NCBI RefSeq assembly: GCF_054482525.1
Contig: NZ_JBTHVG010000004.1
DNA: 64,000 nt
From: a plasmid
Strand: one strand, 5' to 3'
The notes under the pieces are model-generated. The model was not told the origin of the DNA and did no database searches. It saw only the letters and a program-made list of their open reading frames with translations. The translations under genes and the position numbers were made by a program. Below, in pieces: positions 2,454 through 64,000 of the stretch. How positions within the stretch are numbered: the first letter of the stretch is position 1; each line of letters begins with the position of its first letter.

Positions 2454-2914
2454 ACCAGGCATGTATATTTTACGCAGGGACATGCCGGTCATGATCGTTT
2501 CGTTCCAGGGGTGGTCTGGAGATCATGCGGTGTGCTCCCTGCTCTCGCCGGAATAAGGACGTCGCCGCCGGCTCCGCTTTTACCCGGCCATGCGGGGCAT
2601 GGCCTTGTGGGTTTTCAGTTATGTGGCCTCAGCGTCGTGTGCGGGCTGTGCCGTGCCTCCATCGTAGCCGGGCTTCTGCGGGCGGGTTGCAAGGTAAGGT
2701 GAACCGCTGCGGTCACCCGGTCCCTCCTTCCCGTCCGCCGTGATTTTCCGGTCGTTCACCCGCTCAGATTTCGCGGTCTCACCCTCCAACTCCCGCCAGC
2801 CGTGTGCGTCAGGCTGCGGCTTCCCTTGCGCCCTTGCAACCCTGCAGGCCCGGCAAAGATGGAGGCACGGCACCGCCCGGTGTCGCAGAACATGTGACTA
2901 TGGAGGATTCGGGA

Positions 2915-3415
2915 ATGTCTGTTGTTGCACCTGCTGTATACGTTGGAACCTGGCACAAATACAACTGTGGAAGCATCGCCGGACGCTGGTTTGACCTGAC
3001 CACGTTTGATGATGAGCGCGACTTTTTCGCCGCCTGCCGTGCTCTTCACCAGGATGAAGCCGATCCTGAACTGATGTTTCAGGATTATGAGGGATTCCCG
3101 GGGAATATGGCCTCTGAATGCCATATCAACTGGGCCTGGGTTGAAGGCTTCCGCCAGGCACGGGATGAAGGCTGCGAAGAGGCTTATCGTCTCTGGGTGG
3201 AGGATACCGGTGAGACGGATTTTGACACCTTCCGCGATGCCTGGTGGGGCGAGGCTGACAGTGAGGAGGCTTTTGCGGTTGAGTTCGCCAGTGATACCGG
3301 CCTGCTGGCTGACGTGCCGGAGACGGTGGCGCTCTATTTTGACTATGAGGCGTATGCGCGGGATTTATTCCTGGACTCCTTCACCTTTATTGACGGTCAT
3401 GTGTTCCGTCGGTGA
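2915..3415 (+). CDS. ardA: ArdA antirestriction protein (type I restriction inhibitor, DNA mimic)
   Basis: 166 aa from the internal ATG at 2915 (MSVVAPAVYVGTWHKYNCGSIAGRWFDLTTFDDERDFF...), matching ArdA length and acidic composition; the longer 2804 start runs into a GC-rich leader. Confidence 0.9.
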   Translation: MSVVAPAVYVGTWHKYNCGSIAGRWFDLTTFDDERDFFAACRALHQDEADPELMFQDYEGFPGNMASECHINWAWVEGFRQARDEGCEEAYRLWVEDTGETDFDTFRDAWWGEADSEEAFAVEFASDTGLLADVPETVALYFDYEAYARDLFLDSFTFIDGHVFRR

Positions 3416-3770
3416 TTTACTCCCCCGCTCCGGCGGGGGTATGGCCTGCCAGGCCGCCGGAAAACCCTGGCAGGCTTACGCCTGCCTGAAATGCAGGAGG
3501 GCCGCGCCTGCGGCGCTGCCCTTCCTGCCCGTCATGGTGTGAGGCATTTTTCTGTTATGTCGTTTCTGTTGTTCTGATTTCCGGAGGCGGGGACACCTTC
3601 GGCTCCCGGCTGCCTGGCGGCATCCGGTCGTCAGGCCCGACTCCGACAGGCAGCTGCTGGCGCACCCGCCAGTCTCCGCCGAACCCGCTGGCGCGGTTTC
3701 GGGCTGCCGCTACGGTCCGATGTCTGAAAAACCAGGCTTGCAGCGACCGTTCCGGTCGCGCCGCCCCTGT

Positions 3771-4120
3771 CGCGCCGGAAACGGCGCTCCCTGCACACCT
3801 GACGGTGTGTAAGGCCACTGCGCCTGATGGCGCAGTCAACCCTTCCGCCGCCACCCCTGCGGCCTGTTTCCCGCTGTGGACTTTCCGGGGGCTGGAGTAA
3901 CCACATCCCGTTTCAGCAGTCCAGGGGAAGATATACCGTCCACAAAATTTTTAGCCATAAACCCGGCAAAAAATTTTGCGTCCGCCCCCGGACAGCTGCC
4001 CCGTGACGTGGTGACGGACGCCCCATCGGAAAGGTCCACTGCGGGGAGAAACCCCGAAGAAGTGGACGGCAGAAGGGGCTTTCGCCCCTCCGGGGAGCAA
4101 CCGGTCGGCCCGGCGACCTG
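3771..4120 (+). promoter_or_regulatory. Frpo/ssi-like structured repeat, copy 1 (putative single-strand promoter)
   Basis: About 350 bp non-coding block repeated at 6637..6990 with internal palindromes (CACACC-TGACG-GGTGTG; CTGCGCC-TGAT-GGCGCAG); ends about 20 bp before ORF 4144. Confidence 0.55.
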
Positions 4121-4143
4121 ATTCAGCAGAAGGAGACGTTTTC

Positions 4144-4578
4144 ATGACTGTCAGCAGCACGATTTCCGTTTTTTGCCGCGACGGGGTGTTCCGTACCGTT
4201 TACTGCCACCTGCACGGTGAGCCGACCTGGAACGGTCGCATCCTGCATACCCACTATGCCACCGGTCAGCAGGCCGAAGCCCTGGTTGAACACGGTGATA
4301 TCCGTTGCCTCGGTCCCCGTTGCGACAAACCCGCCGGGCATACGCTTCAGAACCCGGTGGACGGTGTGACGGCTTATTACGGACGTGACAGTGGTTTCCG
4401 GATGGACAGTGAGGCGCGTGAGTACCGTTCTTTCAGGGAGGCTATTGCCACTGAAAGCACTGAAGAGGTGCGCTTCCATTATGTGTTCATCGACGGCTAC
4501 TGGAAGGTGATGTACCGCACGCCGGAAGGCTGGAAGATGAAAGCGCTCGCGCTGGCACTGCGTCGCTGTCCGAAATGA
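4144..4578 (+). CDS. leading-region hypothetical protein (144 aa) downstream of ssi-like repeat
   Basis: Clean ORF with GGAG-type RBS (agaaggagacgttttcATG); no recognisable domain. Confidence 0.6.
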   Translation: MTVSSTISVFCRDGVFRTVYCHLHGEPTWNGRILHTHYATGQQAEALVEHGDIRCLGPRCDKPAGHTLQNPVDGVTAYYGRDSGFRMDSEAREYRSFREAIATESTEEVRFHYVFIDGYWKVMYRTPEGWKMKALALALRRCPK

Positions 4579-4670
4579 AAAAAGGCAGGGCGATAAACCC
4601 TGCCTCTCTCCGCCGGCGCTTCCCCGCCAGGAAGTCCGGCATCTCAATCACTATCTATGGAGATTATGCC

Positions 4671-4937
4671 ATGAGACCATCAATTATCTTCGCAACCGCC
4701 GAGTATGTAAAGCGTCTGCGTGAAGAGTGCCTGCGGGAGAATAAACCCCTGCACCGCCATACCCGCTTCAGACGTCAGGAGCTGGCACAGGATGAGATTA
4801 ACCCGGACGTCCTGGCGATGAGCGGCCATATCGCCAGACGCTGCAGTGAGCAGAAGCGGGTGCGTATCCCCGCTATGAAAGTCAGCGAATGGGGCCACCT
4901 GCTCCGCGCGCTTGAAATTGAGCGGGTCTGCCACTGA
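4671..4937 (+). CDS. hypothetical small protein (about 88 aa)
   Basis: ATG at 4671 preceded by ctatggagattatgcc; the listed 4575 start overlaps the previous gene end. Confidence 0.4.
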   Translation: MRPSIIFATAEYVKRLREECLRENKPLHRHTRFRRQELAQDEINPDVLAMSGHIARRCSEQKRVRIPAMKVSEWGHLLRALEIERVCH

Positions 4938-5001
4938 TTAACCCTTGCCGTCTGCCTGTGCAGGCGGCAGGATACGTTCAGACATCTCACCAGGAGGAAC
5001 C

Positions 5002-5892
5002 GTGAGTAAGAAGAAAACCACCACGACGCCCACGCCGCATGATGCCGCGTTCCGGTCGTTCCTGGCGAATCCCGACGTCGCCAGAGATTTTCTGGAACTG
5101 CATCTTCCGGCGGAGTACCGGCAGTTGTGCGACCTGTCCACGCTGAAGCTGGAACCCGCCACCTTTGTTGAGCCGGACCTGCATCAGTACGCCAGCGATA
5201 TCCTCTGGAGTGTGAAAACCACCGGGGGTGAAGACGGCTATGTTTATACGCTCATCGAGCACCAGAGCACCGAAAATCTGTACATGCCTTTCCGCATGTT
5301 ACGTTACAGTGTGGCGGCGATGCAGAGACATCTGGAGCAGCACAAAACGTTGCCACTGGTGATTCCTGTGCTGTTCTATCATGGTGAGCGCAGCCCGTAC
5401 CCGTACAGCATGAACTGGCTGGACTGTTTTGAGAATCCGGCACTTGCGGCTAAAATATACACAAAGCCGTTTCCGCTGGTTGATATCACTGTCGTTGATG
5501 ACAATGAAATCATGAACCATCGCCGGATGGCCGCACTGACGCTGCTGATGAAGCATATCCGCCATCGTGACATGATGGATCTGCTGGACAAACTCCCGCA
5601 GGTCATGGTGGAAATTTCAGACGAGCAGGTGCGTGTTCTGATTCATTACATCGTTAACGCAGGGGACTCTGTATCACCGGAATTTATGCGGGCGCTGGCT
5701 GAGCGTCTGCCGCAGCATGAGGATAAACTGATGACTATCGCAGAACGTCTTGAGCAAAAAGGTCGCCAGGAAGGAGCGCTTGAAAAAGCCCTGGCTATTG
5801 CGTGCCAGCTTCAGAAAATGGGGATGACGCCGGAGCAGATTAAGCAGGCTACCGGACTTTCCGAAGCTGAACTGAAAAAAATCATTCACTGA
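5002..5892 (+). CDS. Rpn-family (YhgA-like) PD-(D/E)XK recombination-promoting nuclease
   Basis: GTG start at 5002 with strong RBS (caggaggaac cGTG); product VSKKKTTTTPTPHDAAFRSFLANPDVARDFLELHLP... resembles E. coli Rpn proteins across the nuclease core and C-terminal domain. Confidence 0.75.
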   Translation: MSKKKTTTTPTPHDAAFRSFLANPDVARDFLELHLPAEYRQLCDLSTLKLEPATFVEPDLHQYASDILWSVKTTGGEDGYVYTLIEHQSTENLYMPFRMLRYSVAAMQRHLEQHKTLPLVIPVLFYHGERSPYPYSMNWLDCFENPALAAKIYTKPFPLVDITVVDDNEIMNHRRMAALTLLMKHIRHRDMMDLLDKLPQVMVEISDEQVRVLIHYIVNAGDSVSPEFMRALAERLPQHEDKLMTIAERLEQKGRQEGALEKALAIACQLQKMGMTPEQIKQATGLSEAELKKIIH

Positions 5893-5902
5893 TGAGAGCA
5901 TC

Positions 5903-5930
5903 ACAGCCCGGCAAAATGCCGGGCTTTTTT
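5903..5930 (+). terminator. rho-independent terminator after the Rpn gene
   Basis: cagcccggcaaaatgccgggc followed by a T-run. Confidence 0.6.
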
Positions 5931-5954
5931 GTCAGCAGGAGCAGAGAAAACAGT

Positions 5955-6149
5955 ATGACGCTTGCAGAACGTCTTATACAGAAAGGTTTCGACGAAGGTT
6001 TTAAAGAAGGTTTTAAGAAAGGTGCGCTTGAAGTGGCGCGGGAAGCAGCCTGCCGGCTGCGGGATATGGGCTGGACGCCGGAACGGATTCAGGAGGCGAC
6101 CGGACTTTCCGGTGAAGAACTGAAAAAGCTGTTTCCTGATGAGCAGTAG
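5955..6149 (+). CDS. stand-alone Rpn C-terminal-domain paralog (about 64 aa)
   Basis: MTLAERLIQKGFDEGFKEG...MGWTPERIQEATGLSGEELKKLF aligns with the last about 55 aa of the upstream Rpn (MTIAERLEQKGRQEGALEK...MGMTPEQIKQATGLSEAELKKII). Confidence 0.6.
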   Translation: MTLAERLIQKGFDEGFKEGFKKGALEVAREAACRLRDMGWTPERIQEATGLSGEELKKLFPDEQ

Positions 6150-6179
6150 CCTGACATTCTGCCAGGCTGTGAATCACGC

Positions 6180-6431
6180 TCACACATTCCCTGCCGTTTC
6201 CCCCAGTTCATTTTCCAGACGCCTGATGATATCTGCCTTGCGCATCCCCTGCATGTGAGGCAGCAGGTCACGGACTGAAAGTGCCTGGGTGGTCCTCCAG
6301 ACGGTGACGTCCACCTGTTCCGCATTTTCCCAGGCGTGCCATGTTCTCTGCGTCACGCCAAATTCTCTGGCCGCTTTTTCGCGTGACCATAGCATGCTTT
6401 TTCGCCAGATTCGCAGTTCCCAGCCGGTCAT
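6180..6431 (-). CDS. small helix-turn-helix DNA-binding protein (83 aa)
   Basis: REKAAREFGVTQRTWHAWENAE resembles an XRE/Cro-type HTH; palindromic sites lie in its upstream region. Confidence 0.5.
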   Translation of the reverse strand: MTGWELRIWRKSMLWSREKAAREFGVTQRTWHAWENAEQVDVTVWRTTQALSVRDLLPHMQGMRKADIIRRLENELGETAGNV

Positions 6432-6447
6432 AAAACACCTTTGAAAA

Positions 6448-6535
6448 AGTGAAAAAACTTCACTTTATTTTATCATCACAATTGCCAAATCAGCGCGATA
6501 AATAAGTGTAAAAAAGTGAAGAAATTTCACTTTTT
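6448..6535. promoter_or_regulatory. pair of 15 bp palindromes (GTGAAAAAACTTCAC and GTGAAGAAATTTCAC), putative operators
   Basis: Two near-identical inverted-repeat sites about 65 bp apart, immediately upstream of the minus-strand HTH gene. Confidence 0.35.
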
Positions 6536-6636
6536 TTGTTTGTAAGTGTCGTGCGGTTTTCTCTGTTTTCACCTGTGCGGGAGTGGTGTGCCAGTGACCA
6601 CCACATGCCATTGTTGTGCCGTCGTTTTTCTTCAGT

Positions 6637-6990
6637 CGCGCCGGATGCGGCGCTCCCTGCACACCTTACGGTGTGTAAGGCCACTGCGCCTGATGGCGCA
6701 GCTGTCTCTTGCCTGTCTGCCGCCGCACTGCGGCCTGTTCTCCGCAGACGGACTTTCCGGGGGTACATACACGACCACATCCCGTTTCAGTCGTCCAGGG
6801 GAGAGATGTACCAGCCACAAAACTTTTTGCCGCTGGCGTCAAAAACTTTTGCGTCTGCCCCCGGACAACTGCCCCGTGACGTGGTGAGCGTCCCCCGTCG
6901 GAAAGGTCCACTGCGGGGAAATACCCTAAGACCCGGACGGCAGAAGGAGCTTCGCTCCTCCGGGAAATGACCTGGCTGACCCGGCAGTCG
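6637..6990 (+). promoter_or_regulatory. Frpo/ssi-like structured repeat, copy 2
   Basis: Homologous to 3771..4120 over its whole length with scattered substitutions; ends about 20 bp before ORF 7012. Confidence 0.55.
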
Positions 6991-7011
6991 TGACGATGAG
7001 GAGACAATGTG

Positions 7012-7860
7012 ATGAATCAGACTTTACCCACTGCTGACCTGAATACTGCCGGCACGACAGATGTTATTCCGTCTGTGGCTATCGACCGCATCATCGCGCA
7101 GCGTAACGAAGGTATTGCACTATTCATGCAGGCGATGGAATGCCTGGCGACAGCGCGCAGGATTCTGCTCGATGCGTCAGGTGATATTTTTCTTTACGGG
7201 TTTGAAGACTGCGTGACTGATTCCGTTCGTCGCATGGATAAGCCGGAAGAAGCGAAAAGGAATATCACCCGTCTTGCCGACCGGAAAATCTGGGACCGCC
7301 TGATGACAGATACGGGCATGTACACCTTCATGAGTTCATGCCAGCGTGATGAGTGGAACAGCCAGCTGATGAGCGACACCTGTCCTGAAATCACCCTGGA
7401 CAATGTACTGGCAACATTCCGCCATCTTAATACCAGCAAGATGCAGACGTTTGAACAGGGACTGATTGATGTCTACCGGAAATTGTCATGGGATTACAGA
7501 ACCAATAATCCCTGCCGTCTGGGCAAGAAAATCATTATTGAAAACATGCTGTACCGCTGGAGTAACGGGCGTGTGACGCTGGACTGCAGCGGACGGGAGG
7601 CACTGGATGACCTGGTACGTCCTTTTTATCTGCTGGAGGGGCGAAACGTTCCTGACTTCCGGAGCAGCATCGGGGCGCAGTATGGTGAATTTCTCGGGAA
7701 CGGCGACAACGTCGGTAAGCTGTTAGAAGGGGAATATTTTACGGTGCGTGGCTACCAGAAAGGGACCGTACACATTGTCTTTAAGCGTCCTGACCTTGTT
7801 GAAAAACTGAATGATATTATTGCACGGCATTATCCTGGTGCATTGCCGCCACGAGTCTGA
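7012..7860 (+). CDS. leading-region hypothetical protein (about 282 aa) downstream of ssi-like repeat
   Basis: ATG at 7012 after GAGGAG RBS; long clean ORF; no domain assigned with confidence. Confidence 0.6.
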   Translation: MNQTLPTADLNTAGTTDVIPSVAIDRIIAQRNEGIALFMQAMECLATARRILLDASGDIFLYGFEDCVTDSVRRMDKPEEAKRNITRLADRKIWDRLMTDTGMYTFMSSCQRDEWNSQLMSDTCPEITLDNVLATFRHLNTSKMQTFEQGLIDVYRKLSWDYRTNNPCRLGKKIIIENMLYRWSNGRVTLDCSGREALDDLVRPFYLLEGRNVPDFRSSIGAQYGEFLGNGDNVGKLLEGEYFTVRGYQKGTVHIVFKRPDLVEKLNDIIARHYPGALPPRV

Positions 7861-7867
7861 TTAAACA

Positions 7868-7905
7868 GAAAAGCCCTGGTATTTATGCCGGGGCTTTTTT
7901 TTCTG
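7868..7905 (+). terminator. rho-independent terminator
   Basis: agccctggtatttatgccggggc followed by a T-run of 8. Confidence 0.6.
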
Positions 7906-7945
7906 TAATCATCATAATCTCAGAACACGATGTGACATTGTCACA

Positions 7946-8287
7946 TCAATTGTTGTTCATATCGATGCCATCTTTCCTGCCTGAATCTGTCTTTTTAGGT
8001 GCTGTTTTAGAGGAAGAACGGCGGGATGGTTTTTTCGATTCTGCTTCCCGAATAATGTCACGAAGTGCCTTCTCTCCTACTTCATACCCTGCATTTTTAA
8101 GCGTGTCACGAACATCTGCCAGTGTATAACCCTTTGTCCTTACCAGGACAATGATGTCATCACGAATGGCATCAAGAAAATCACGCAATGTTTTCCGTTG
8201 AGCGGTGAGGTCCGGCAATTCCGATAAGGCAGCTTTTGCCAGCTGGATGTCATCATCTGAGTAAAATTTTTTAGAAGCCATTGGCAC
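7946..8287 (-). CDS. hypothetical protein (113 aa) with basic Ser/Lys-rich C-terminus, adjacent to oriT
   Basis: Clean ORF; tail SKKPSRRSSSKTAPKKTDSGRK suggests nucleic-acid binding; no family assigned. Confidence 0.5.
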   Translation of the reverse strand: MPMASKKFYSDDDIQLAKAALSELPDLTAQRKTLRDFLDAIRDDIIVLVRTKGYTLADVRDTLKNAGYEVGEKALRDIIREAESKKPSRRSSSKTAPKKTDSGRKDGIDMNNN

Positions 8288-8289
8288 TT

Positions 8290-8514
8290 TCTCTCCGTTT
8301 CATGTTGAAGTCTGATTTTATCATCAAAAACTGACTCCTGGCAGGGCTGCGCCCTGCTTCTGCCGTCTGCATAAGACTATGATGCACAAAAATAACAGGC
8401 TATAATGGCCTGAAAAACGGGACAGGATGTGCAATTGTAATACCGTCACACGCGACGCTATTACAATTGCCATCTGGTCAGGGCTTCGCCCCGACACCCC
8501 GTAAGGAGCCTGAA
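8290..8514. other. oriT region (IncI1-type) with NikA-binding inverted repeat
   Basis: Intergenic region upstream of nikA containing the imperfect inverted repeat GCAATTGTAATA...TATTACAATTGC (about 8430..8470) and the palindrome CAGGGCTGCGCCCTG (about 8340). Confidence 0.65.
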
Positions 8515-8847
8515 GTGAGTGATAGTGCGGTAAGAAAGAAAAGTGAGGTACGGCAAAAGACAGTTGTCAGGACACTCAGATTCTCTCCTGTTGAGGATGA
8601 AACCATCAGGAAAAAAGCTGAAGATTCCGGACTTACTGTATCTGCTTACATCCGAAATGCAGCACTGAATAAGCGAATTAACTCCCGTACAGATGATGCT
8701 TTTCTGAAGGAGTTAATGAGACTGGGAAGGATGCAGAAGCATCTGTTTGTTCAGGGAAAAAGAACCGGTGACAAGGAATACGCAGAAGTGCTTGTTGCCA
8801 TAACCGAACTTACAAATACATTGCGTAAACAGTTAATGGAAGGTTGA
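8515..8847 (+). CDS. nikA: NikA relaxosome accessory protein (ribbon-helix-helix)
   Basis: 110 aa from a GTG start after AGGAG RBS (VSDSAVRKKSEVRQKTVVRTLRFSPVEDETIRKKAED...), matching R64 NikA; the upstream part of the listed ORF is oriT. Confidence 0.85.
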   Translation: MSDSAVRKKSEVRQKTVVRTLRFSPVEDETIRKKAEDSGLTVSAYIRNAALNKRINSRTDDAFLKELMRLGRMQKHLFVQGKRTGDKEYAEVLVAITELTNTLRKQLMEG

Positions 8848-8857
8848 GGATTCTCCG

Positions 8858-11560
8858 GTGAATGCAGTCATTCCGAAAAAGAGAAGGGACGGCAAGTCTT
8901 CGTTCGAAGACCTGGTATCCTACGTCTCTGTCCGGGATGACATGACCGATGAGGAACTGGATTTATCTTCTTCTTCGCAGGCTGAACAACCGCACCGAAG
9001 CCGTTTCAGTCGCCTTGTTGATTATGCGACACGTCTTCGAAATGAGTCATTCGTGGCGCTGGTTGATGTCATGAAGGACGGCTGCGAATGGGTCAACTTT
9101 TATGGTGTCACCTGCTTTCATAACTGTACTTCTCTTGAAACTGCCGCTGCAGATATGGAGTACATTGCCCGGCAGGCACACTATGCAAAAGATGACACTG
9201 ATCCTGTTTTTCACTACATCCTTTCCTGGCAGTCACATGAAAGCCCGCGTCCGGAACAGATTTATGACAGTGTACGTCATACGCTGAAATCACTCGGCCT
9301 TGCCGACCATCAGTATGTCTCTGCCGTGCATACTGATACAGATAATCTGCACGTCCATGTGGCTGTTAACCGGGTACACCCTGAAACGGGTTATCTGAAC
9401 CGGTTATCATGGAGTCAGGAAAAACTCAGTCGTGCCTGCCGTGAGCTTGAACTGAAGCATGGTTTTGCTCCGGATAACGGTTGCTGGGTCCATGCGCCGG
9501 GAAATCGTATCGTTCGCAAAACTGCCGTTGAACGTGATCGCCAGAACGCTTGGACACGCGGAAAAAAACAAACTTTTCGCGAGTATGTTGCGCAGACAGC
9601 GGTCGCTGGTTTACGCAGTGAACCTGTACATGACTGGTTATCCCTGCATCGTCGTCTTGCTGAAGATGGTTTGTACCTGTCTCAGATGGACGGAAAATTT
9701 CTGGTGATGGATGGCTGGGATCGCAACAGGGAAGGTGTACAGCTTGACTCGTTTGGTCCCTCCTGGTGTGCAGAAAAACTCATGAAAAAAATGGGTGACT
9801 ACACGCCAGTGCCAAAAGACATTTTCAGCCAGGTGGAAGCACCAGGACGCTATAATCCGGACTTCATTGCAGCTGATGTTCGCCCGGAAAAAATCGCTGA
9901 AACAGAAAGTCTGCAGCAGTATGCCTGTCGTCATCTTGGAGAACGTCTGCCGGAAATGGCACGGGAAGGACGGCTGGAAAACTGCCAGGCTATTCACCGC
10001 ACACTGGCTGAAGCGGGATTATGGATGCGTGTTCAGCATGGTCACCTGGTTATCTGTGACGGTTATGATCATAACCAGACTCCCGTTCGTGCTGACAGCG
10101 TATGGTCACTGCTGACGCTCGACAATGTGAATCAACTCGATGGTGGCTGGCAGCCTGTACCAACAGATATTTTCCGCCAGGTTACGCCAACAGAACGCTT
10201 CCGTGGTCGTCGTATGGAGAGCTGTCCTGCGACCGATAAAGAATGGCACCGTATGCGTACAGGTACGGGGCCGCAGGGGGCTATCAAACGCGAACTGTTT
10301 TCTGACAAAGAAAGTCTGTGGGGATACAGCATCAGCCATTGTAGCCCTCAGATTGAAGAAATGATCACACAGGGTGAGTTTACCTGGCAGCGTTGTCATG
10401 AGTTGTTTGCACAACAGGGACTGATGCTACAGAAACAACATCACGGGCTTGTTGTCGTTGATGCCTTTAATCATGAGCAAACGCCGGTGAAGGCCAGCAG
10501 CATTCATCCTGATCTGACTCTGGGGCGTGCAGAGCCACAGGCCGGACCTTTTGTGAGTGCCCCAGCAGATTTGTTTGACAGGGTGCAACCTGAAAGTCGC
10601 TATAACCCGGAGCTGGCTGTCAGTGACAGGTACGGGGTCAGCAGTAAACGTGACCCAATGCTGCGCCGGCAGCGACGTGAAGCCAGAGCTGAGGCCCGTG
10701 CTGACCTGCGTGCCCGCTATCTGGCATGGCGTGAACAATGGCGTAAACCAGATCTGCGTTATGGGGAACGTTGTCGGGAAATTCATCAGGCATGCCGTCT
10801 GCGGAAGTCACACATTCGTGCGCAGTACGATGATCCGGCATTACGTAAGCTGCATTATCACATTGCAGAAGTTCAGCGAATGCAGGCATTGATCAGGCTG
10901 AAAGAAGACATCAGGGATGAGCGGCAGAAACTTATTGCTGACGGGAAGTGGTATCCACCCTCTTACCGTCAGTGGGTCGAAATTCAGGCTGCTCAGGGAG
11001 ACAGGGCTGCTGTATCGCAGCTGAGAGGCTGGGATTATCGCGATCGCCGTAAAGATAAGTCACGCACAACGACAACAGACCGCTGTGTCGTGCTTTGTGA
11101 ACCGGGCGGAACGCCGGTATACGGTAATACCGGTGATCTCGAGGCCCGTTTGCAGAAGAACGGGAGTGTTCGTTTCCGTGACCGTCGGACGGGAGAGTTT
11201 GTCTGTACGGATTATGGTGACAGGGTTGTTTTCCGTAATCACCATGACCGCAATGCGCTGGCAGATAAACTGGATTTGATTGCACCGGTATTATTCGGGC
11301 GTGATCCACGCATGGGTTTTGAACCAGAAGGAAACGACAAACAATTTAACCAGGTCTTTGCTGAAATGGTTGCCTGGCATAATGTGACAGGCCGTACCGG
11401 TCACGAAGACTACAGGATTACGCGACCGGACGTGGATCATCACCGTGAAGGAAGTGAACGCTACTACCGCGATTATATCGCGGCGAACAGCAACGATGAC
11501 GCATCACTGCCTCCGCCGGAGCAGGATAAACTCTGGGAACCGCCTTCTCCGATGAGATGA
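8858..11560 (+). CDS. nikB: NikB relaxase (MOBP-type)
   Basis: 900 aa ORF after nikA; contains the histidine motif HVHVAVNRVHPETG; size matches R64 NikB. Confidence 0.9.
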   Translation: MNAVIPKKRRDGKSSFEDLVSYVSVRDDMTDEELDLSSSSQAEQPHRSRFSRLVDYATRLRNESFVALVDVMKDGCEWVNFYGVTCFHNCTSLETAAADMEYIARQAHYAKDDTDPVFHYILSWQSHESPRPEQIYDSVRHTLKSLGLADHQYVSAVHTDTDNLHVHVAVNRVHPETGYLNRLSWSQEKLSRACRELELKHGFAPDNGCWVHAPGNRIVRKTAVERDRQNAWTRGKKQTFREYVAQTAVAGLRSEPVHDWLSLHRRLAEDGLYLSQMDGKFLVMDGWDRNREGVQLDSFGPSWCAEKLMKKMGDYTPVPKDIFSQVEAPGRYNPDFIAADVRPEKIAETESLQQYACRHLGERLPEMAREGRLENCQAIHRTLAEAGLWMRVQHGHLVICDGYDHNQTPVRADSVWSLLTLDNVNQLDGGWQPVPTDIFRQVTPTERFRGRRMESCPATDKEWHRMRTGTGPQGAIKRELFSDKESLWGYSISHCSPQIEEMITQGEFTWQRCHELFAQQGLMLQKQHHGLVVVDAFNHEQTPVKASSIHPDLTLGRAEPQAGPFVSAPADLFDRVQPESRYNPELAVSDRYGVSSKRDPMLRRQRREARAEARADLRARYLAWREQWRKPDLRYGERCREIHQACRLRKSHIRAQYDDPALRKLHYHIAEVQRMQALIRLKEDIRDERQKLIADGKWYPPSYRQWVEIQAAQGDRAAVSQLRGWDYRDRRKDKSRTTTTDRCVVLCEPGGTPVYGNTGDLEARLQKNGSVRFRDRRTGEFVCTDYGDRVVFRNHHDRNALADKLDLIAPVLFGRDPRMGFEPEGNDKQFNQVFAEMVAWHNVTGRTGHEDYRITRPDVDHHREGSERYYRDYIAANSNDDASLPPPEQDKLWEPPSPMR

Positions 11561-11682
11561 CAGATGAAGCTTTATTAGTTTCGTTATAGAATGAAAAAAT
11601 CACCAATATTAAATATGGGTGTGGTGGTAAAAATAAATATGTTAGGCAATGTTAAGTAACTCTATTGACGGAATCATGTTTT

Positions 11683-12501
11683 ATGAGCACTAATCTTGCT
11701 TTTCGTTATGCAAGTGTTGAAACTTTTTTTAAAATGATTGAAAACCAAGAATTATGGTTTACCGATCTTCGGAATATGAATGATCCGGAAGAATACTCGG
11801 CTGGCTATGAAATAGTCAAGAGAATAATAAATGAGGAATTTCCAGATTGCATTAGACTATTAGAAGAAGTATCACCTAATAAGATAGACGAAAATTTTAA
11901 GATATTAATTTGTTGTTTCTGTTCTGATGGAGATCGTTCCAACATGTGGAGCGAGTATGGTGATAATGGCAAAGGCGTTGCTATTGGTTATGATAAGAAT
12001 ATTATAACCCAAAATCATATTTTGGCTCGGTTTGAAGAACATTTTCAACCTATTAGTGGTAGAGTTGTCTTTCATCCTGTTATCTATTCAGAAGAACTGT
12101 TTCGAGAATATGTAAGAAACGCATTGCATGATTATATTAATCGCTCAAGTTTAAATATTAAATATGCACGTGGCATACTTCATGCACATCTTATCAGACT
12201 ATGTTCATTATATAAGAGAGAGAGTTTTGAATGTGAAAATGAGGTCCGAGGACTTATTGAAGTAGATGAACGTACATTCCCACCATACAAACTTGAAAAA
12301 CGTAGTACTGATTACGGAATTGCGTATTATACTAAGGTGAAATTTACCTGTAACAATATTACGGCAATTAGAGAGATTGTGTTGGGGCCTTTATTTGAAC
12401 AATCTGATGAACAGCTTCGGTCAAAATTAGATGATCTAGGGTTAAAGAATATAAAAATTAGACGTTCCATATGTACCTACAATGATGTGGTTAATCTGTA
12501 A
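11683..12501 (+). CDS. AT-rich cargo gene, DUF2971-like protein (about 272 aa)
   Basis: Markedly AT-rich codon usage compared with flanking nikB/trbC; motifs FTDLRNMNDPEEY and CCFCSDGDRSNMWSEYGDNGKGVAIGY recalled as DUF2971-like (not searched); terminator follows. Confidence 0.6.
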   Translation: MSTNLAFRYASVETFFKMIENQELWFTDLRNMNDPEEYSAGYEIVKRIINEEFPDCIRLLEEVSPNKIDENFKILICCFCSDGDRSNMWSEYGDNGKGVAIGYDKNIITQNHILARFEEHFQPISGRVVFHPVIYSEELFREYVRNALHDYINRSSLNIKYARGILHAHLIRLCSLYKRESFECENEVRGLIEVDERTFPPYKLEKRSTDYGIAYYTKVKFTCNNITAIREIVLGPLFEQSDEQLRSKLDDLGLKNIKIRRSICTYNDVVNL

Positions 12502-17155: not shown

Positions 17156-17252
17156 GACAAAGTCTCCATTTCTGGAATTTAAATCAAACGGAAAGGTTAA
17201 AAATTTATTTGCAGGCGATAAGAGCTAACCAGAGGAATTAGCCGTGTGATAA

Positions 17253-17420
17253 AAGGATTGTTGCAGATACGAAAGTCGTTAGAATAGCCGCGGACGCTTG
17301 AGGCTGTATGCCGAAAGCGTTTTGTGGATGGTATACAGCAGAAAGCCCCCTGGAGATTTTTTATCAATCAACCAGGGGCTCTACTGTAATGCCTAGACAA
17401 CATTATAGTAGCCTGATAAT
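17253..17420 (+). repeat. partial duplicate of the pnd leader region (no toxin ORF)
   Basis: About 170 bp that matches 18672..18845 with roughly ten differences by eye, then diverges just before the position of the pndA start. Confidence 0.6.
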
Positions 17421-17461
17421 TTAGATATGTGTACATCCTACCGGAAAAGATACTTTTCAGG

Positions 17462-18553: not shown

Positions 18554-18671
18554 CTCCTAAGGGGATTCTTTTATTAACTAAAATCAGCATAACATGCGTT
18601 GTTGTGAAGTAGAGAACCATGTATTGGGTTGGTTGTTAACTTCAAAAACAACGCTGAATCATTCAAATAAT

Positions 18672-18864
18672 AAAAGGATTGTTACAGATACGAAAGTCGT
18701 TAGAATAGCTGCGGGCGCTTGAGGCTGTATGCCGAAAGCGTTTTGTGGACGGTATACAGCAGAAAGCCCCTGGAGATTTTTTTATCAATCAACCAAGGGC
18801 TCTACTGTAATGCCTCAACAACATTATAGTAGCCCGATAACCGCCGGAAGGCAATGGAGGGGCT
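18672..18864 (+). promoter_or_regulatory. pnd leader region (mok/pndC-like overlapping frame and probable antisense RNA pndB)
   Basis: Conserved leader directly upstream of pndA; in hok/sok-type loci this region carries the antisense RNA and the translational-coupling ORF. RNA ends were not mapped. Confidence 0.45.
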
Positions 18865-18867
18865 ATG

Positions 18868-19020
18868 ATGCCACAGCGAACGTTTTTAATGATGTTAATC
18901 GTCGTCTGTGTGACGATTCTGTGTTTTGTCTGGATGGTGAGGGATTCGCTTTGCGGACTCCGGCTCCAGCAGGGAAACACAGTGCTTGTGGCAACGTTAG
19001 CCTACGAAGTTAAACGTTAA
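18868..19020 (+). CDS. pndA: PndA, Hok-family type I toxin
   Basis: 50 aa hydrophobic peptide MPQRTFLMMLIVVCVTILCFVWMVRDSLCGLRLQQGNTVLVATLAYEVKR, typical of Hok/SrnB/PndA; not in the ORF track because it is under 60 aa. Confidence 0.8.
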   Translation: MPQRTFLMMLIVVCVTILCFVWMVRDSLCGLRLQQGNTVLVATLAYEVKR

Positions 19021-19343: not shown

Positions 19344-19495
19344 CGGATTTTCTCTCTGTATTTATGGGTAGTTATCGAACTGAATGTGCCAGTTTTTTCA
19401 GGAGACGGCAAAGTTGAGATGATTGGTTCTGATTCAAAGCATGAGTTTCCCCGGTGTGACGGGCATGTCGGGCGGATTTTGAGAAACAACAGATG

Positions 19496-19530
19496 TAAAA
19501 AAACCGACTGGTGAGGTCGGTTTTTTTACT
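19496..19530. terminator. bidirectional terminator-like hairpin
   Basis: aaaaaaaccgac tggtgag gtcggttttttt: stem flanked by an A-run and a T-run. Confidence 0.5.
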
Positions 19531-19540
19531 GTTCCGTTAC

Positions 19541-19771
19541 AGAGTGGGTGGCTCTGGTCGGAAAAGAACTGTCTATAACTGACTTGTAGATAGTACGTCT
19601 GGAATTATATTTCTGCAAGTACTGGATAAGTGTATACTCGGCATGTCAGCTCTGAGGCATGTTCTGTCCGACATATTGTTCAGCGGGAAGAACAGGTTGC
19701 AAGTCCTGGCCAAAACATCAGGTGGTGCTGGTTTTGGTGCTCTGGTCGGAGAAGAACTGTCTATAACTGAC
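19541..19771. repeat. two copies of a 33 bp direct repeat (GCTCTGGTCGGARAAGAACTGTCTATAACTGAC) about 200 bp apart
   Basis: Copies at about 19541..19573 and 19739..19771 differ at one position. Confidence 0.5.
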
Positions 19772-62913: not shown

Positions 62914-63232
62914 CTAAAAACGCTATCACTGAGTTCCTACGCTCATTGGTGATAGCCCAGACGGGGGTAGGAATACCGGCGTCATCGGAAACCGGCCAGG
63001 CTAATGCCTGCCCCGCCTGAGCTACCATAGATGACGACAAGAAATACAAGTTCCTGTCTTTATGGTATGGCAAAAAACGACGCCAAATGAAGAAATTAAC
63101 TTCTGCGCCGACGATGACTACGCGGGTTCCTACGCCCGATCACAGTTTTGCCTGTGACCAGTAAAGGGTACTTAGTATAACGCACCGAGTCAACTAACAG
63201 CTTAAAAAACATACAAAAAAGCGTCAAAACTT

Positions 63233-63712: not shown

Positions 63713-63888
63713 TTCAAATTAACGTAAAGCGGGTATATTTCGGCTGTTATTAGCTGTGCAGAGGGTGGCACTCTGTGGAGCAAAGCGGCGAAAGTCGGAC
63801 GGCAGAATGCGCCATAAGGCATTCAGGAGAGATGGCATGTACGGGCAGTAAGTCAGAAGACTGAAGATGTTCCGGAAGCCATAAAAGG

Positions 63889-63950
63889 AAAACCCCCACT
63901 ATCTTTCTTACGAACTTGGCGGAACGACGAAAGATAGTGGGGGCCTCACA
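63889..63950. other. long perfect hairpin (15 bp stem, about 24 nt loop)
   Basis: CCCCCACTATCTTTC ... GAAAGATAGTGGGGG. Confidence 0.5.
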
Positions 63951-64000
63951 GAATACGGGTAAAGTATAATGAAACCGTACCAGAGATTCAACCCTGTGCA

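Follow-up and report, generated by a model that had tools for sequence, protein, structure and literature searches.

Two leading-region repeats of an IncI1-type plasmid match the ssDNA promoter elements ssi2 and ssi1

Two structured repeats lie within the leading region of the plasmid analysed here, each heading an uncharacterised gene, and the question is what they are and whether they could drive expression of those genes as the plasmid enters a new host. The window, i.e. the whole stretch of 64,000 nt that was analysed, comes from an IncI1-type plasmid. A preliminary description made from the letters alone had presented the repeats as two homologous, palindrome-rich copies of about 350 bp, similar to Frpo/ssi elements and ending some 20 bp before their genes, and had proposed that they contain promoters that fire from incoming single-stranded DNA.

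Identity and fold of the repeats

When positions 3771-4120 were compared with the window by BLASTN, a match was found at 6637-6964 (81.25% identity over 336 columns, E = 1.5e-79); in a MAFFT alignment of the two copies the mean column identity was 85%. The best-conserved blocks returned by a repeat search were 3769-3835/6635-6701 (96%) and 3964-4023/6837-6896 (87%). Segments 3767-4092 and 6633-6962 are confirmed as diverged copies of a single element. The homology is real and far beyond chance, but the plasmid contains three copies rather than two, the third being located beyond the window's left end, close to it and upstream of ssb (L001:5921-6251). The left ends first proposed were accurate to within 4 nt, while detectable homology and the published element stop at 4092 and 6962, ∼28 nt before the right ends proposed (4120 and 6990). 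This puts the start codons 51 and 49 nt beyond the element; the spacing of about 20 bp holds when counted from the earlier right ends (23 and 21 nt), but not from those of the element.

The likeness to Frpo/ssi turned out to be closer than had been suggested, these being the ssi repeats of ColIb-P9 themselves. Copy A showed a single mismatch in 326 nt (99.7% identity) to ssi2 of ColIb-P9 (AJ238399:4353-4678), and was 100% identical to the ColIb-P9 record NC_002122 and to ssi2 of pESBL-EA11. Copy B was 98.5% identical to ssi1 of ColIb-P9 (AJ238399:1459-1787; five differences), over the full 326-330 nt range of the elements, and 98.5% identical to pESBL ssi1. The elements of the window and of ColIb-P9 are essentially the same DNA, at the same position relative to oriT and in the same orientation, and nothing of substance differs between them. 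The pESBL-EA11 region from ardA to nikA is ∼97% identical to the window and shares its gene order, except that ygdA and the Rpn gene are separated in pESBL by an additional small ORF, absent from the window. The ssi1 and ssi2 elements of ColIb-P9 have been described (Bates et al. 1999; Nasim et al. 2004), and those of AJ238399 appear as "ColIb P-9 Frpo1/Frpo2" among the known Frpo/ssi in Supplementary Table 2 of Samuel et al. 2024; at least 5000 plasmid records contain homologues. The elements are thus already known: they were sequenced in 1999, thousands of plasmids have been catalogued with them and their in vivo validation came in 2025; they are textbook for the IncI1 group, which the preliminary description had missed.

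The elements and the parts of their predicted fold are as follows:

3767..4092, minus strand: ssi2 (copy A), class 1 ssDNA promoter element (ColIb-P9 and pESBL-EA11 identity; fold)
3772..3835, minus strand: T-strand 3′ end of ssi2, with three short G+C-rich hairpins (block 96% conserved, present in every fold)
3844..4073, minus strand: long imperfect hairpin of ssi2 (consensus fold of seven IncI-type copies)
3892-3899 / 4013-4020, minus strand: internal loop of the ssi2 hairpin
3919-3927 with 3985-3993, minus strand: pair of invariant CCCCTGGAC with GTCCGGGGG in the ssi2 hairpin
3928-3936, minus strand: 9-nt bulge, 3′ arm of the ssi2 hairpin
3941-3980, minus strand: apical A/T-rich stem and loop of the ssi2 hairpin
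6633..6962, minus strand: ssi1 (copy B), class 1 ssDNA promoter element, the copy nearest oriT (ColIb-P9/pESBL identity; fold)
6638-6702, minus strand: equivalent block of three short hairpins in ssi1
6716..6944, minus strand: long imperfect hairpin of ssi1 (fold and consensus fold)
6764-6773 / 6886-6892, minus strand: internal loop of the ssi1 hairpin
6793-6801 with 6858-6866, minus strand: pair of CCCCTGGAC with GTCCGGGGG in the ssi1 hairpin
6802-6811, minus strand: bulge of the ssi1 hairpin
6816-6853, minus strand: apical stem and loop of the ssi1 hairpin

The internal palindromes reported earlier were borne out by folding of the minus strand, which gave an imperfect hairpin of ∼230 nt plus small hairpins, at −110.8 kcal/mol for ssi2 (z = −8.9) and −106.1 kcal/mol for ssi1 (z = −8.5); none of 100 shuffled sequences folded as well. 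A long, stable, imperfect stem-loop on the transferred strand is one of the grounds for the class 1 assignment. The plus strand folds nearly as well (z = −8.1), as that of any palindrome would, so the active strand is not identifiable from folding alone. In the consensus of seven IncI-type copies, 97.9% of cells in the long hairpin were paired (G-T being taken as a standard pair), against 39-49% when the partners were slid. Double compensatory changes affected 10 pairs, against 2-3 with slid partners, and none of 500 shuffles reached 10, a count that refers to seven related sequences. Pairing in the long hairpin is conserved with compensatory changes. The block of short hairpins, which lies upstream of the long hairpin in the mRNA sense, is invariant and therefore provides no covariation evidence.

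Homology to a characterised Frpo/ssi element is a further ground for the class assignment. Frpo1 and Frpo2 of F (ssiD; ssp1a/ssp1b) are the same kind of element and follow the same logic as ssi1 and ssi2, and the comparison with F proposed earlier gave 73-80% identity over about 80-118 nt. Homology with F Frpo1/2, as with a Serratia Frpo, does not extend beyond the apical ∼90-110 nt, in which the CCCCTGGAC/GTCCGGGGG pair and the A/T-rich stem lie; F cannot be aligned with the outer two thirds of the hairpin and lacks the three terminal short hairpins. The F Frpo upstream of ssb is the positional equivalent of IncI ssi3. The cargo of F Frpo1 is ygeA/ygeB (ORF95 and a DUF932 protein) and has no relationship to ygcA, ygdA or ygfB. 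With high confidence, then, the repeats are ssi2 and ssi1, two of the three class 1 ssDNA promoters of IncI1-type plasmids and the IncI counterparts of F Frpo1/Frpo2.

Transferred strand and expression in the recipient

The landmarks that define the transferred strand, and the genes downstream of each element, are:

8415..8500, minus strand: oriT core, with ATCCTG|T, a 17-bp inverted repeat and an 8-bp inverted repeat adjoining nikA (read from the sequence)
4144..4578, plus strand: ygcA, 144 aa, first gene after ssi2, often mislabelled "PndC"
4671..4937, plus strand: ygdA, 88 aa, second gene of the presumed ssi2 operon (annotated in relatives)
5002..5892, plus strand: ygdB, Rpn-family (transposase_31) nuclease, third gene of the presumed ssi2 operon (annotation)
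5905-5925: intrinsic terminator plus T run after ygdB (terminator scan)
7012..7860, plus strand: ygfB, 282 aa, DUF4942 protein, sole gene after ssi1
∼7873-7906: hairpin plus T8 after ygfB

On the minus strand, at ∼8422/8423, a nick-region motif of the IncP type (ATCCTG|T) adjoins the 17-bp and 8-bp inverted repeats found upstream of nikA; to judge from IncP/IncI nick regions, the nick itself is presumably at this position. With the motif on this strand and next to nikA, the minus strand enters first, lower coordinates leading. This agrees with the strand assignment made earlier, in which the transferred strand is the template of the plus-strand genes; the transferred minus strand is also the functional strand of ssi2. 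In R64, too, 17-bp and 8-bp repeats lie directly upstream of nikA (PMC3817090). Position 1 of AJ238399 corresponds to about 8420 in the window, and ssi1 and ssi2 are 1.46 and 4.35 kb from the nick. As had been noted, psiB, psiA, ardA and the ORFs at 4144-4578 and 7012-7860 are all on the plus strand; the interval also contains genes on the minus strand (ygeA, 6180-6431; a small ORF, 6465-6662; yggA, 7946-8281). Both ORFs have the limits first given (144 aa, and 282 aa from the ATG), with an in-frame GTG at 7009 just ahead of the ygfB ATG. The location of the elements in the leading region, upstream of genes templated by the transferred strand, also points to class 1.

Identity of the elements, strand logic, fold, conservation and lack of a duplex promoter come from the present analysis, whereas early induction and start sites are taken from the literature. 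Benz and Hall (PNAS 2023) described three operons expressed from ssi3-1, between oriT and about 12 kb. According to Wen et al. (NAR 2025), who applied donor-depleted RNA-seq and 5′ RACE to pESBL, six leading-region operons were strongly induced, with a maximum of ∼500-fold at 15 min; ssi1-3 head three of these operons, with starts mapped by 5′ RACE, and these elements were designated "class 1" ssDNA promoters, the strongest and those with the highest transcription rates. They also report that induction fell with time and persisted longer in uvrD recipients. The firing from incoming ssDNA proposed for the window is therefore published for elements 100% and 98.5% identical to those studied here. 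By analogy, ygcA and ygfB would be among the induced genes, as judged from the statement that ssi1-3 head induced operons rather than from per-gene values.

In the mechanism proposed, NikB would nick the minus strand at oriT (∼8422), and the strand would enter the recipient 5′ end first. Once single-stranded, each element would form its ∼230-nt imperfect hairpin, the stem of which would mimic duplex promoter DNA; host sigma-70 RNA polymerase would initiate there and copy the incoming strand towards oriT, giving a ygfB mRNA from ssi1 and a ygcA-ygdA-ygdB mRNA from ssi2 (operon extents are inferred). Synthesis of the complementary strand would abolish the hairpin and turn the promoter off, so expression would be a short pulse. 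The transcripts may also prime that synthesis.

The canonical −35/−10 signals anticipated on the transferred strand were not found. A strict scan of either strand of either element detected neither a duplex sigma-70 consensus nor a −35/−10 hexamer pair, and a relaxed scan of the T strand (≥8/12 matches, with A2 and T6 in the −10) detected none at a conserved position in six homologues. The lack of a sigma-70 duplex consensus fits a promoter that is silent as dsDNA; with no hexamers located, any promoter geometry can be proposed only weakly. Tentatively, invariant CCCCTGGAC, written TGGAC(N), on the 3′ arm of the hairpin might be −35-like, the apical A/T tract an UP-like element and the internal loop ∼17 nt beyond CCCCTGGAC a pre-melted −10 region, which would place the ssi2 transcription start near 4025-4030.

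Class 2 ssDNA promoters, which in pESBL and F lie upstream of ardA and klcA, share with ssi the region, the strand logic and the long hairpin, but have no sequence similarity to ssi1-3. The copy in the window has a readable TTGCAA ... TACGAT on its 3′ arm, with mismatches opposite the −10:

∼2595-2880: class 2 ssDNA promoter copy

The ardA gene has, then, its own, different ssDNA promoter hairpin, which had gone unremarked.

Other roles considered for the hairpins

The elements might act mainly or additionally as single-strand initiation signals, the RNA made on the hairpin staying annealed and priming the complementary strand. The chance of this seems somewhat below even. The name ssi derives from that activity. 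According to reviews, Frpo RNA remains in an RNA-DNA hybrid that DNA polymerase III uses in vitro, and a 2026 preprint on F describes rifampicin-sensitive early conversion events downstream of ssp1/Frpo promoters; moreover, no role in transcription is assigned to the three invariant short hairpins of the 3′ end. However, the support comes from F rather than from the IncI copies and the sequence does not address it, while transcription into downstream genes is directly documented in pESBL (Wen et al. 2025). Priming adds to the promoter explanation rather than displacing it. A role as physical roadblocks that delay duplex conversion and prolong the pulse, by analogy with F ssp2, appears improbable. 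In its favour, very high stability is predicted for the hairpins (−106 to −111 kcal/mol), induction of pESBL lasted longer in uvrD recipients (Wen et al. 2025), and 3′ ends stalled in F are mapped by the preprint to the ssp2 stem, the stall being resolved by UvrD; but in F it is ssp2, the class lying upstream of the ArdB/KlcA homologue, to which this activity was attributed rather than ssp1/Frpo, and ssp3 was devoid of roadblock activity.

It is very improbable that the structure acts in RNA, as long 5′ leaders or terminators of upstream operons served by ordinary promoters. The plus strand, which has the mRNA sense, does fold strongly (z = −8.1), and a terminator-like hairpin was flagged at 6684-6701, but no sigma-70-like promoter was found on the plus strand upstream of or within the repeats, nor any Rfam family match at them. 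Moreover, F leading genes are undetectable in donors and require Frpo in recipients, and the pulse of expression stops upon duplex conversion. Hardly credible at all is the idea that the repeats are functionless, being only scars left by recombination or the borders of modules in a mobile "leading-region cassette". Venturini et al. 2013 described a plasmid with a single hybrid repeat where a 9.7-kb segment is missing, and an IncK2/Z plasmid (L003) has an ssi2/ssi3 hybrid copy and lacks the ssb-ardA segment; such recombination follows from the similarity of the repeats and is a consequence, not a function. A hairpin maintained by compensatory changes, the homologues in so many plasmid records and a function shown experimentally all argue against it, and published deletion and transcript data contradict it.

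The downstream genes and their significance

The two ORFs had been called uncharacterised; YgcA and YgfB are indeed already catalogued as such, and as enriched in leading regions. They are 99.3% and 98.6% identical, respectively, to the pESBL proteins. YgfB residues 90-275 match PF13708 (DUF4942; E = 1.2e-50), while YgdA had no family match and no homology to F YgeA. The structure prediction suggested earlier was made for YgcA and YgfB, and neither model had a convincing relative among solved structures, although YgcA was confidently predicted to be globular (pLDDT 97).

Two labels in circulation were rejected. YgcA might have been a PndC/Mok-type leader of a hok-family killer locus, but the only Rfam sok matches (17292-17449 and 18713-18870) are >12 kb from ygcA, and the annotated Hok gene is beyond trbA; with no adjoining Hok/sok and a globular protein of 144 aa, the PndC label is a misannotation. 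The DNA methyltransferase label sometimes given to DUF4942 proteins does not suit YgfB, in which the catalytic domain of such enzymes was not found.

Neither protein matched ArdA, KlcA/ArdB or ArdC in Pfam, NCBIfam, PHROGs or PADLOC, or had such a fold, and an anti-defence role for them is a guess. A speculative and rather unlikely reading is that YgcA, YgfB or both act early, as establishment or anti-defence effectors of an undescribed kind. YgcA would then belong, as its plasmid representative, to a very large family with no Pfam entry, present in phages, plasmids, bacteria and archaea, whose conserved polar residues (N-terminal Thr3, His22, His66, Arg81-Asp82) suggest an enzyme or metal site. 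YgfB would be a stand-alone form of the domain that elsewhere is fused to phage DNA methyltransferases; it might work together with the leading region's own single-strand methylase or serve as a decoy for restriction-modification complexes.

What a conjugative plasmid expresses in its first minutes inside a new host comes from single-stranded DNA promoters. Establishment genes, among them those for anti-restriction and SOS inhibition, are under their control, and these promoters therefore influence the spread of resistance plasmids such as those of IncI1. The elements in the window add nothing new in this respect; the point worth pursuing is their cargo, since the promoter class that gave the highest transcription rates in Wen et al. 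2025 drives the uncharacterised YgcA and YgfB.

Identity, setting and transferred strand of the repeats

Positions 3500-8000 of the window match, at 100% identity, many IncI1/I-gamma plasmids of Salmonella, E. coli and Shigella. The gene layout was taken from the annotation of one of these, NZ_MW881231, and converted to window coordinates; the R64-style gene names are from LC567052.

Genes and repeats of the leading region (window coordinates, strand)
to 652, plus: yfhA (ParB-like)
707-1141, plus: psiB
1138-1857, plus: psiA
1854-2450, plus: ygaA
2915-3415, plus: ardA
3767-4092: copy A (ssi2)
4144-4578, plus: ygcA
4671-4937, plus: ygdA
5002-5892, plus: ygdB (Rpn-family)
to 6149, plus: small ORF
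6180-6431, minus: ygeA (HTH gene)
6465-6662, minus: small ORF
6633-6962: copy B (ssi1)
7012-7860, plus: ygfB (DUF4942 gene)
7946-8281, minus: yggA (mobC-like)
8515-8847, plus: nikA
8858-11557, plus: nikB

The right end of the window bears an Rfam match to the repZ pseudoknot (63885-64000); ∼850 nt upstream of it lies a match to the C4 antisense RNA family (62945-63032, minus strand, 77.5 bits).

The two structured repeats heading ygcA and ygfB proved homologous, as had been proposed: BLASTN gave 81.25% identity over 336 columns (E = 1.5 × 10–79), and MAFFT a column identity of 85%. Their left ends had been placed to within 4 nt, but the right ends had been set ∼28 nt beyond the limits of homology (4092 and 6962). 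Word-size-7 BLASTN revealed no further diverged copies in the window besides A and B, and Rfam, at gathering thresholds, no match within 3700-7900. Outside the window, ∼2.3 kb before its start, a third copy precedes ssb (L001, one of the DNA records compared, positions 5921-6251). The elements were then compared with those of ColIb-P9, using the coordinates in Supplementary Table 2 of Samuel et al. Positions 4353-4678 of the leading-region record of this plasmid (AJ238399) correspond to window 4092-3767, minus strand, with one mismatch in 326; 1459-1787 is 98.5% identical to window 6962-6633, and 11381-11711 is 98.5% identical to the copy upstream of ssb. Copy A is 100% identical to ColIb-P9 itself (NC_002122), and at least 5000 plasmid records contain a match. 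Benz and Hall (PNAS 2023) describe ssi3 as heading the ssb-yfhA-psiB-psiA operon, and three operons 'transcribed by ssi3-1', counted from oriT; by this numbering copy B is ssi1 and copy A is ssi2. The feature is not new, being already known in this exact sequence.

The IncK2/Z plasmid NZ_CP141242 (L003) contains a hybrid copy (3001-3329), the gene-proximal part of which is identical to ssi2 and the distal part to ssi3. This plasmid is without the entire ssb-psiB-psiA-ardA segment, and its klcA operon continues directly into ygcA. The hybrid is sequence evidence that recombination between ssi repeats may delete leading-region modules.

Upstream of nikA the window has the IncI1 oriT layout of 8-bp and 17-bp inverted repeats (described in PMC3817090). 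Past these repeats the minus strand reads ...TTGCACATCCTG followed by TCCCG..., a nick region of the IncP/IncI type. From the IncP/IncI oriT families we take the nick to lie at ∼8422/8423, in which case the relaxase would be attached to the minus strand at its 5′-end, and this strand would enter with decreasing coordinates. Position 1 of AJ238399 maps to ∼8420, and this record gives the minus-strand sequence, which is consistent with minus-strand transfer. The nick region and the record mapping thus bear out the strand assignment of the preliminary description, in which the minus strand is both the transferred (T) strand and the template for all plus-strand genes.

Early expression of the downstream operons

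The transcriptomics of early transfer that had been suggested as a check has largely been done already, with near-identical elements of the related plasmid pESBL-EA11 (pESBL). Wen et al. (NAR 2025) lysed the donors osmotically and sequenced RNA from the remaining pESBL transconjugants. Induction was seen for six operons of the leading region, by up to ∼500-fold at 15 min, declining afterwards; hairpins lie upstream of all six, and the three that are counterparts of ColIb-P9 ssi1-3 ('class 1') were the strongest. Mapping by 5′ RACE confirmed where transcription starts, and induction was more prolonged in uvrD recipients, in which duplex conversion is slow. The pESBL elements are 100% (ssi2) and 98.5% (ssi1) identical to those of the window, as are YgcA (99.3%), YgdA (98.9%) and YgfB (98.6%) nearly so, and gene order is the same; these results therefore transfer directly to the window. 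In the F plasmid, the downstream proteins are no longer made early once Frpo1 or Frpo2 is deleted. The interpretation of the repeats as promoters firing from incoming single-stranded DNA is accordingly supported by elements known in this exact sequence and validated in vivo in pESBL.

A strong intrinsic terminator follows ygdB (5905-5925 plus a T run), and a hairpin followed by T8 lies after ygfB (∼7873-7906). On this basis, ssi2 would drive ygcA-ygdA-ygdB, and ssi1 ygfB alone.

A separate hairpin of ∼230 nt, with no sequence relationship to ssi1/2, was seen upstream of ardA (2595-2880, minus strand; fold z –4.1). Its identity to the pESBL region 5′ of ardA is 89%, and to that 5′ of klcA 88%, which makes it one of the ssDNA promoters that Wen et al. 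(2025) place in 'class 2'. The 3′ arm of its T strand contains TTGCAA ... TACGAT, the –10-like hexamer showing T.C and T.T mismatches with the opposite arm.

Fold and promoter geometry

In single-stranded DNA folding, copy A was predicted to reach –110.8 kcal/mol on its minus strand (shuffled sequences –75.6 ± 4.0; z –8.9), and copy B –106.1 kcal/mol (z –8.5). The plus strand folds nearly equally (z –8.1), so the active strand is not chosen by folding alone. A consensus fold was derived from seven IncI-type copies: the three paralogues of this plasmid type, two from an IncK2/Z plasmid and two from an IncFIB/I-gamma plasmid.

Parts of the consensus fold (window coordinates)
small hairpin, gene-proximal
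3844-4073 (ssi2), 6716-6944 (ssi1): imperfect hairpin of ∼230 nt
apical stem, A/T-rich
bulge of 9-10 nt, on the 3′ arm
invariant helix CCCCTGGAC/GTCCGGGGG
internal loop
3772-3835 (ssi2), 6638-6702 (ssi1): three short G+C-rich hairpins, at the 3′ end

With G-T counted as a pair, 97.9% of the cells in these seven related copies form standard pairs; sliding the partners by 1-3 columns lowers this to 39-49%. Compensatory double changes are seen at ten pairs, compared with 2-3 for slid partners and 5.0 ± 1.3 in shuffles, none of 500 shuffles reaching ten. Conservation is highest in the three terminal hairpins (96% between copies versus 81% overall), which are invariant in all seven and absent from F Frpo1/2. 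They could be a priming signal, or a barrier to replication or transcription.

The extended hairpins expected on the T strand are thus predicted, but the 'reconstituted' –35/–10 boxes could be placed there by neither a strict nor a relaxed scan. The strict scan detected no sigma-70-like hexamer pair in either duplex strand of ssi1 or ssi2, which fits a promoter silent as dsDNA; the relaxed scan, which covered the T strands of six homologues, yielded no conserved candidate. Several hexamers were also considered by eye: a –35 at TTGTGG/TTGCGG, which leaves the bulge in the spacer; a –10 at TATATC, inside the bulge; and CAAAAT on the 5′ arm, directed at the loop. None proved conserved or well spaced. 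Comparison with F revealed homology of ssi1/2 to Frpo1/2 in the apical 80-118 nt only, and the likeness to Serratia Frpo is restricted likewise; this apical part should therefore hold the promoter. UP, –35 and –10 elements in such hairpins were described by Samuel et al. Reading from loop to base, the A/T tract on the 3′ arm might be an UP-like element, the invariant TGGAC(N) a –35-like hexamer, and the internal loop (3892-3899/4013-4020 in ssi2), 17 nt beyond it, a pre-melted –10 region. This tentative geometry, held with low confidence, would place the ssi2 transcript start near 4025-4030 and that of ssi1 at ∼6895-6900.

YgcA, YgfB and neighbouring genes

YgcA (144 aa) has no match in Pfam or NCBIfam, and matches two PHROGs, both of unknown function. 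Its family is large (1981 cluster representatives at E ≤ 1 × 10–3), with Thr3, Tyr20, His22, Gly25, Gly51, His66, Arg81 and Asp82 conserved. Since the hok/sok-type loci are >12 kb distant, 'post-segregation killing protein PndC' is a wrong name for YgcA; the presence of this label on ygcA in many database records, UniProt entries included, appears to be a propagated misannotation. Family 23 of the leading-region-enriched families of Samuel et al. ('PndC', 2203 members) is most likely YgcA. Two matches to sok-type antisense RNA (Rfam, 84.6 and 132.8 bits) lie within a 171-nt direct repeat, 92% identical (regions 17249-17449 and 18670-18870), so there are two hok/sok-like (pnd-type) loci on the plasmid, separated by 1.4 kb. 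Near them, an AgrB match (19495-19582, minus strand) adjoins the annotated dqlB toxin.

One distant relative of YgcA lies among small genes on a 235-kb contig with DNA ligase and heme oxygenase genes, which looks like a phage. Another, 43% identical, is on a Salmonella contig (AAICIA010000080, L012, 681-1127), in a co-oriented gene run with two ArdC-type (ArdcN plus metalloprotease) genes; this is another setting in which the family has what appears to be an anti-restriction neighbourhood. The two contexts hint at early or anti-defence neighbourhoods, but too thinly to build on.

YgfB (282 aa) is a DUF4942 protein (E = 1.2 × 10–50). One hit in PHROGs falls on the equivalent section of a 'DNA methyltransferase' family 548 positions long; YgfB itself is without a methyltransferase domain. 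DUF4942/YdiA/YgfB is family 24 of Samuel et al. (2171 members, 'Uncharacterized'). The F Frpo1 cargo, YgeA/YgeB, is unrelated to YgcA and YgfB. Comparison also led to rejection of ygdA and ygfB as IncI versions of F YgeA or YgeB; nor is ygfB paralogous to the gene upstream of klcA that encodes a 256-aa leading-region protein. Literature searches found no functional study of ygcA/ygfB, DUF4942 or ccgAII.

The small ORF after the ygdB terminator (likely start ATG 5955; 64 aa) duplicates the last ∼60 residues of the Rpn-family nuclease (TIGR01784 C-terminal match), through DNA repeats 5731-5774/5955-5998 and 5756-5879/6004-6127. Its sequence suggests a stand-alone version of the small domain at the C-terminus of Rpn, a domain reported to act as an intragenic antitoxin. 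The palindrome AAAAAGTGAA-N5-TTCACTTTTT occurs twice, 67 bp apart, just upstream of minus-strand ygeA (6433-6537), the second copy falling within the annotated minus-strand ORF 6465-6662; the two look like putative operators for the YgeA HTH regulator.

The interest that remains lies in the promoter geometry, in the three invariant terminal hairpins and in what YgcA and YgfB do, for which an anti-defence or establishment role is, from position and timing only, a reasonable guess.
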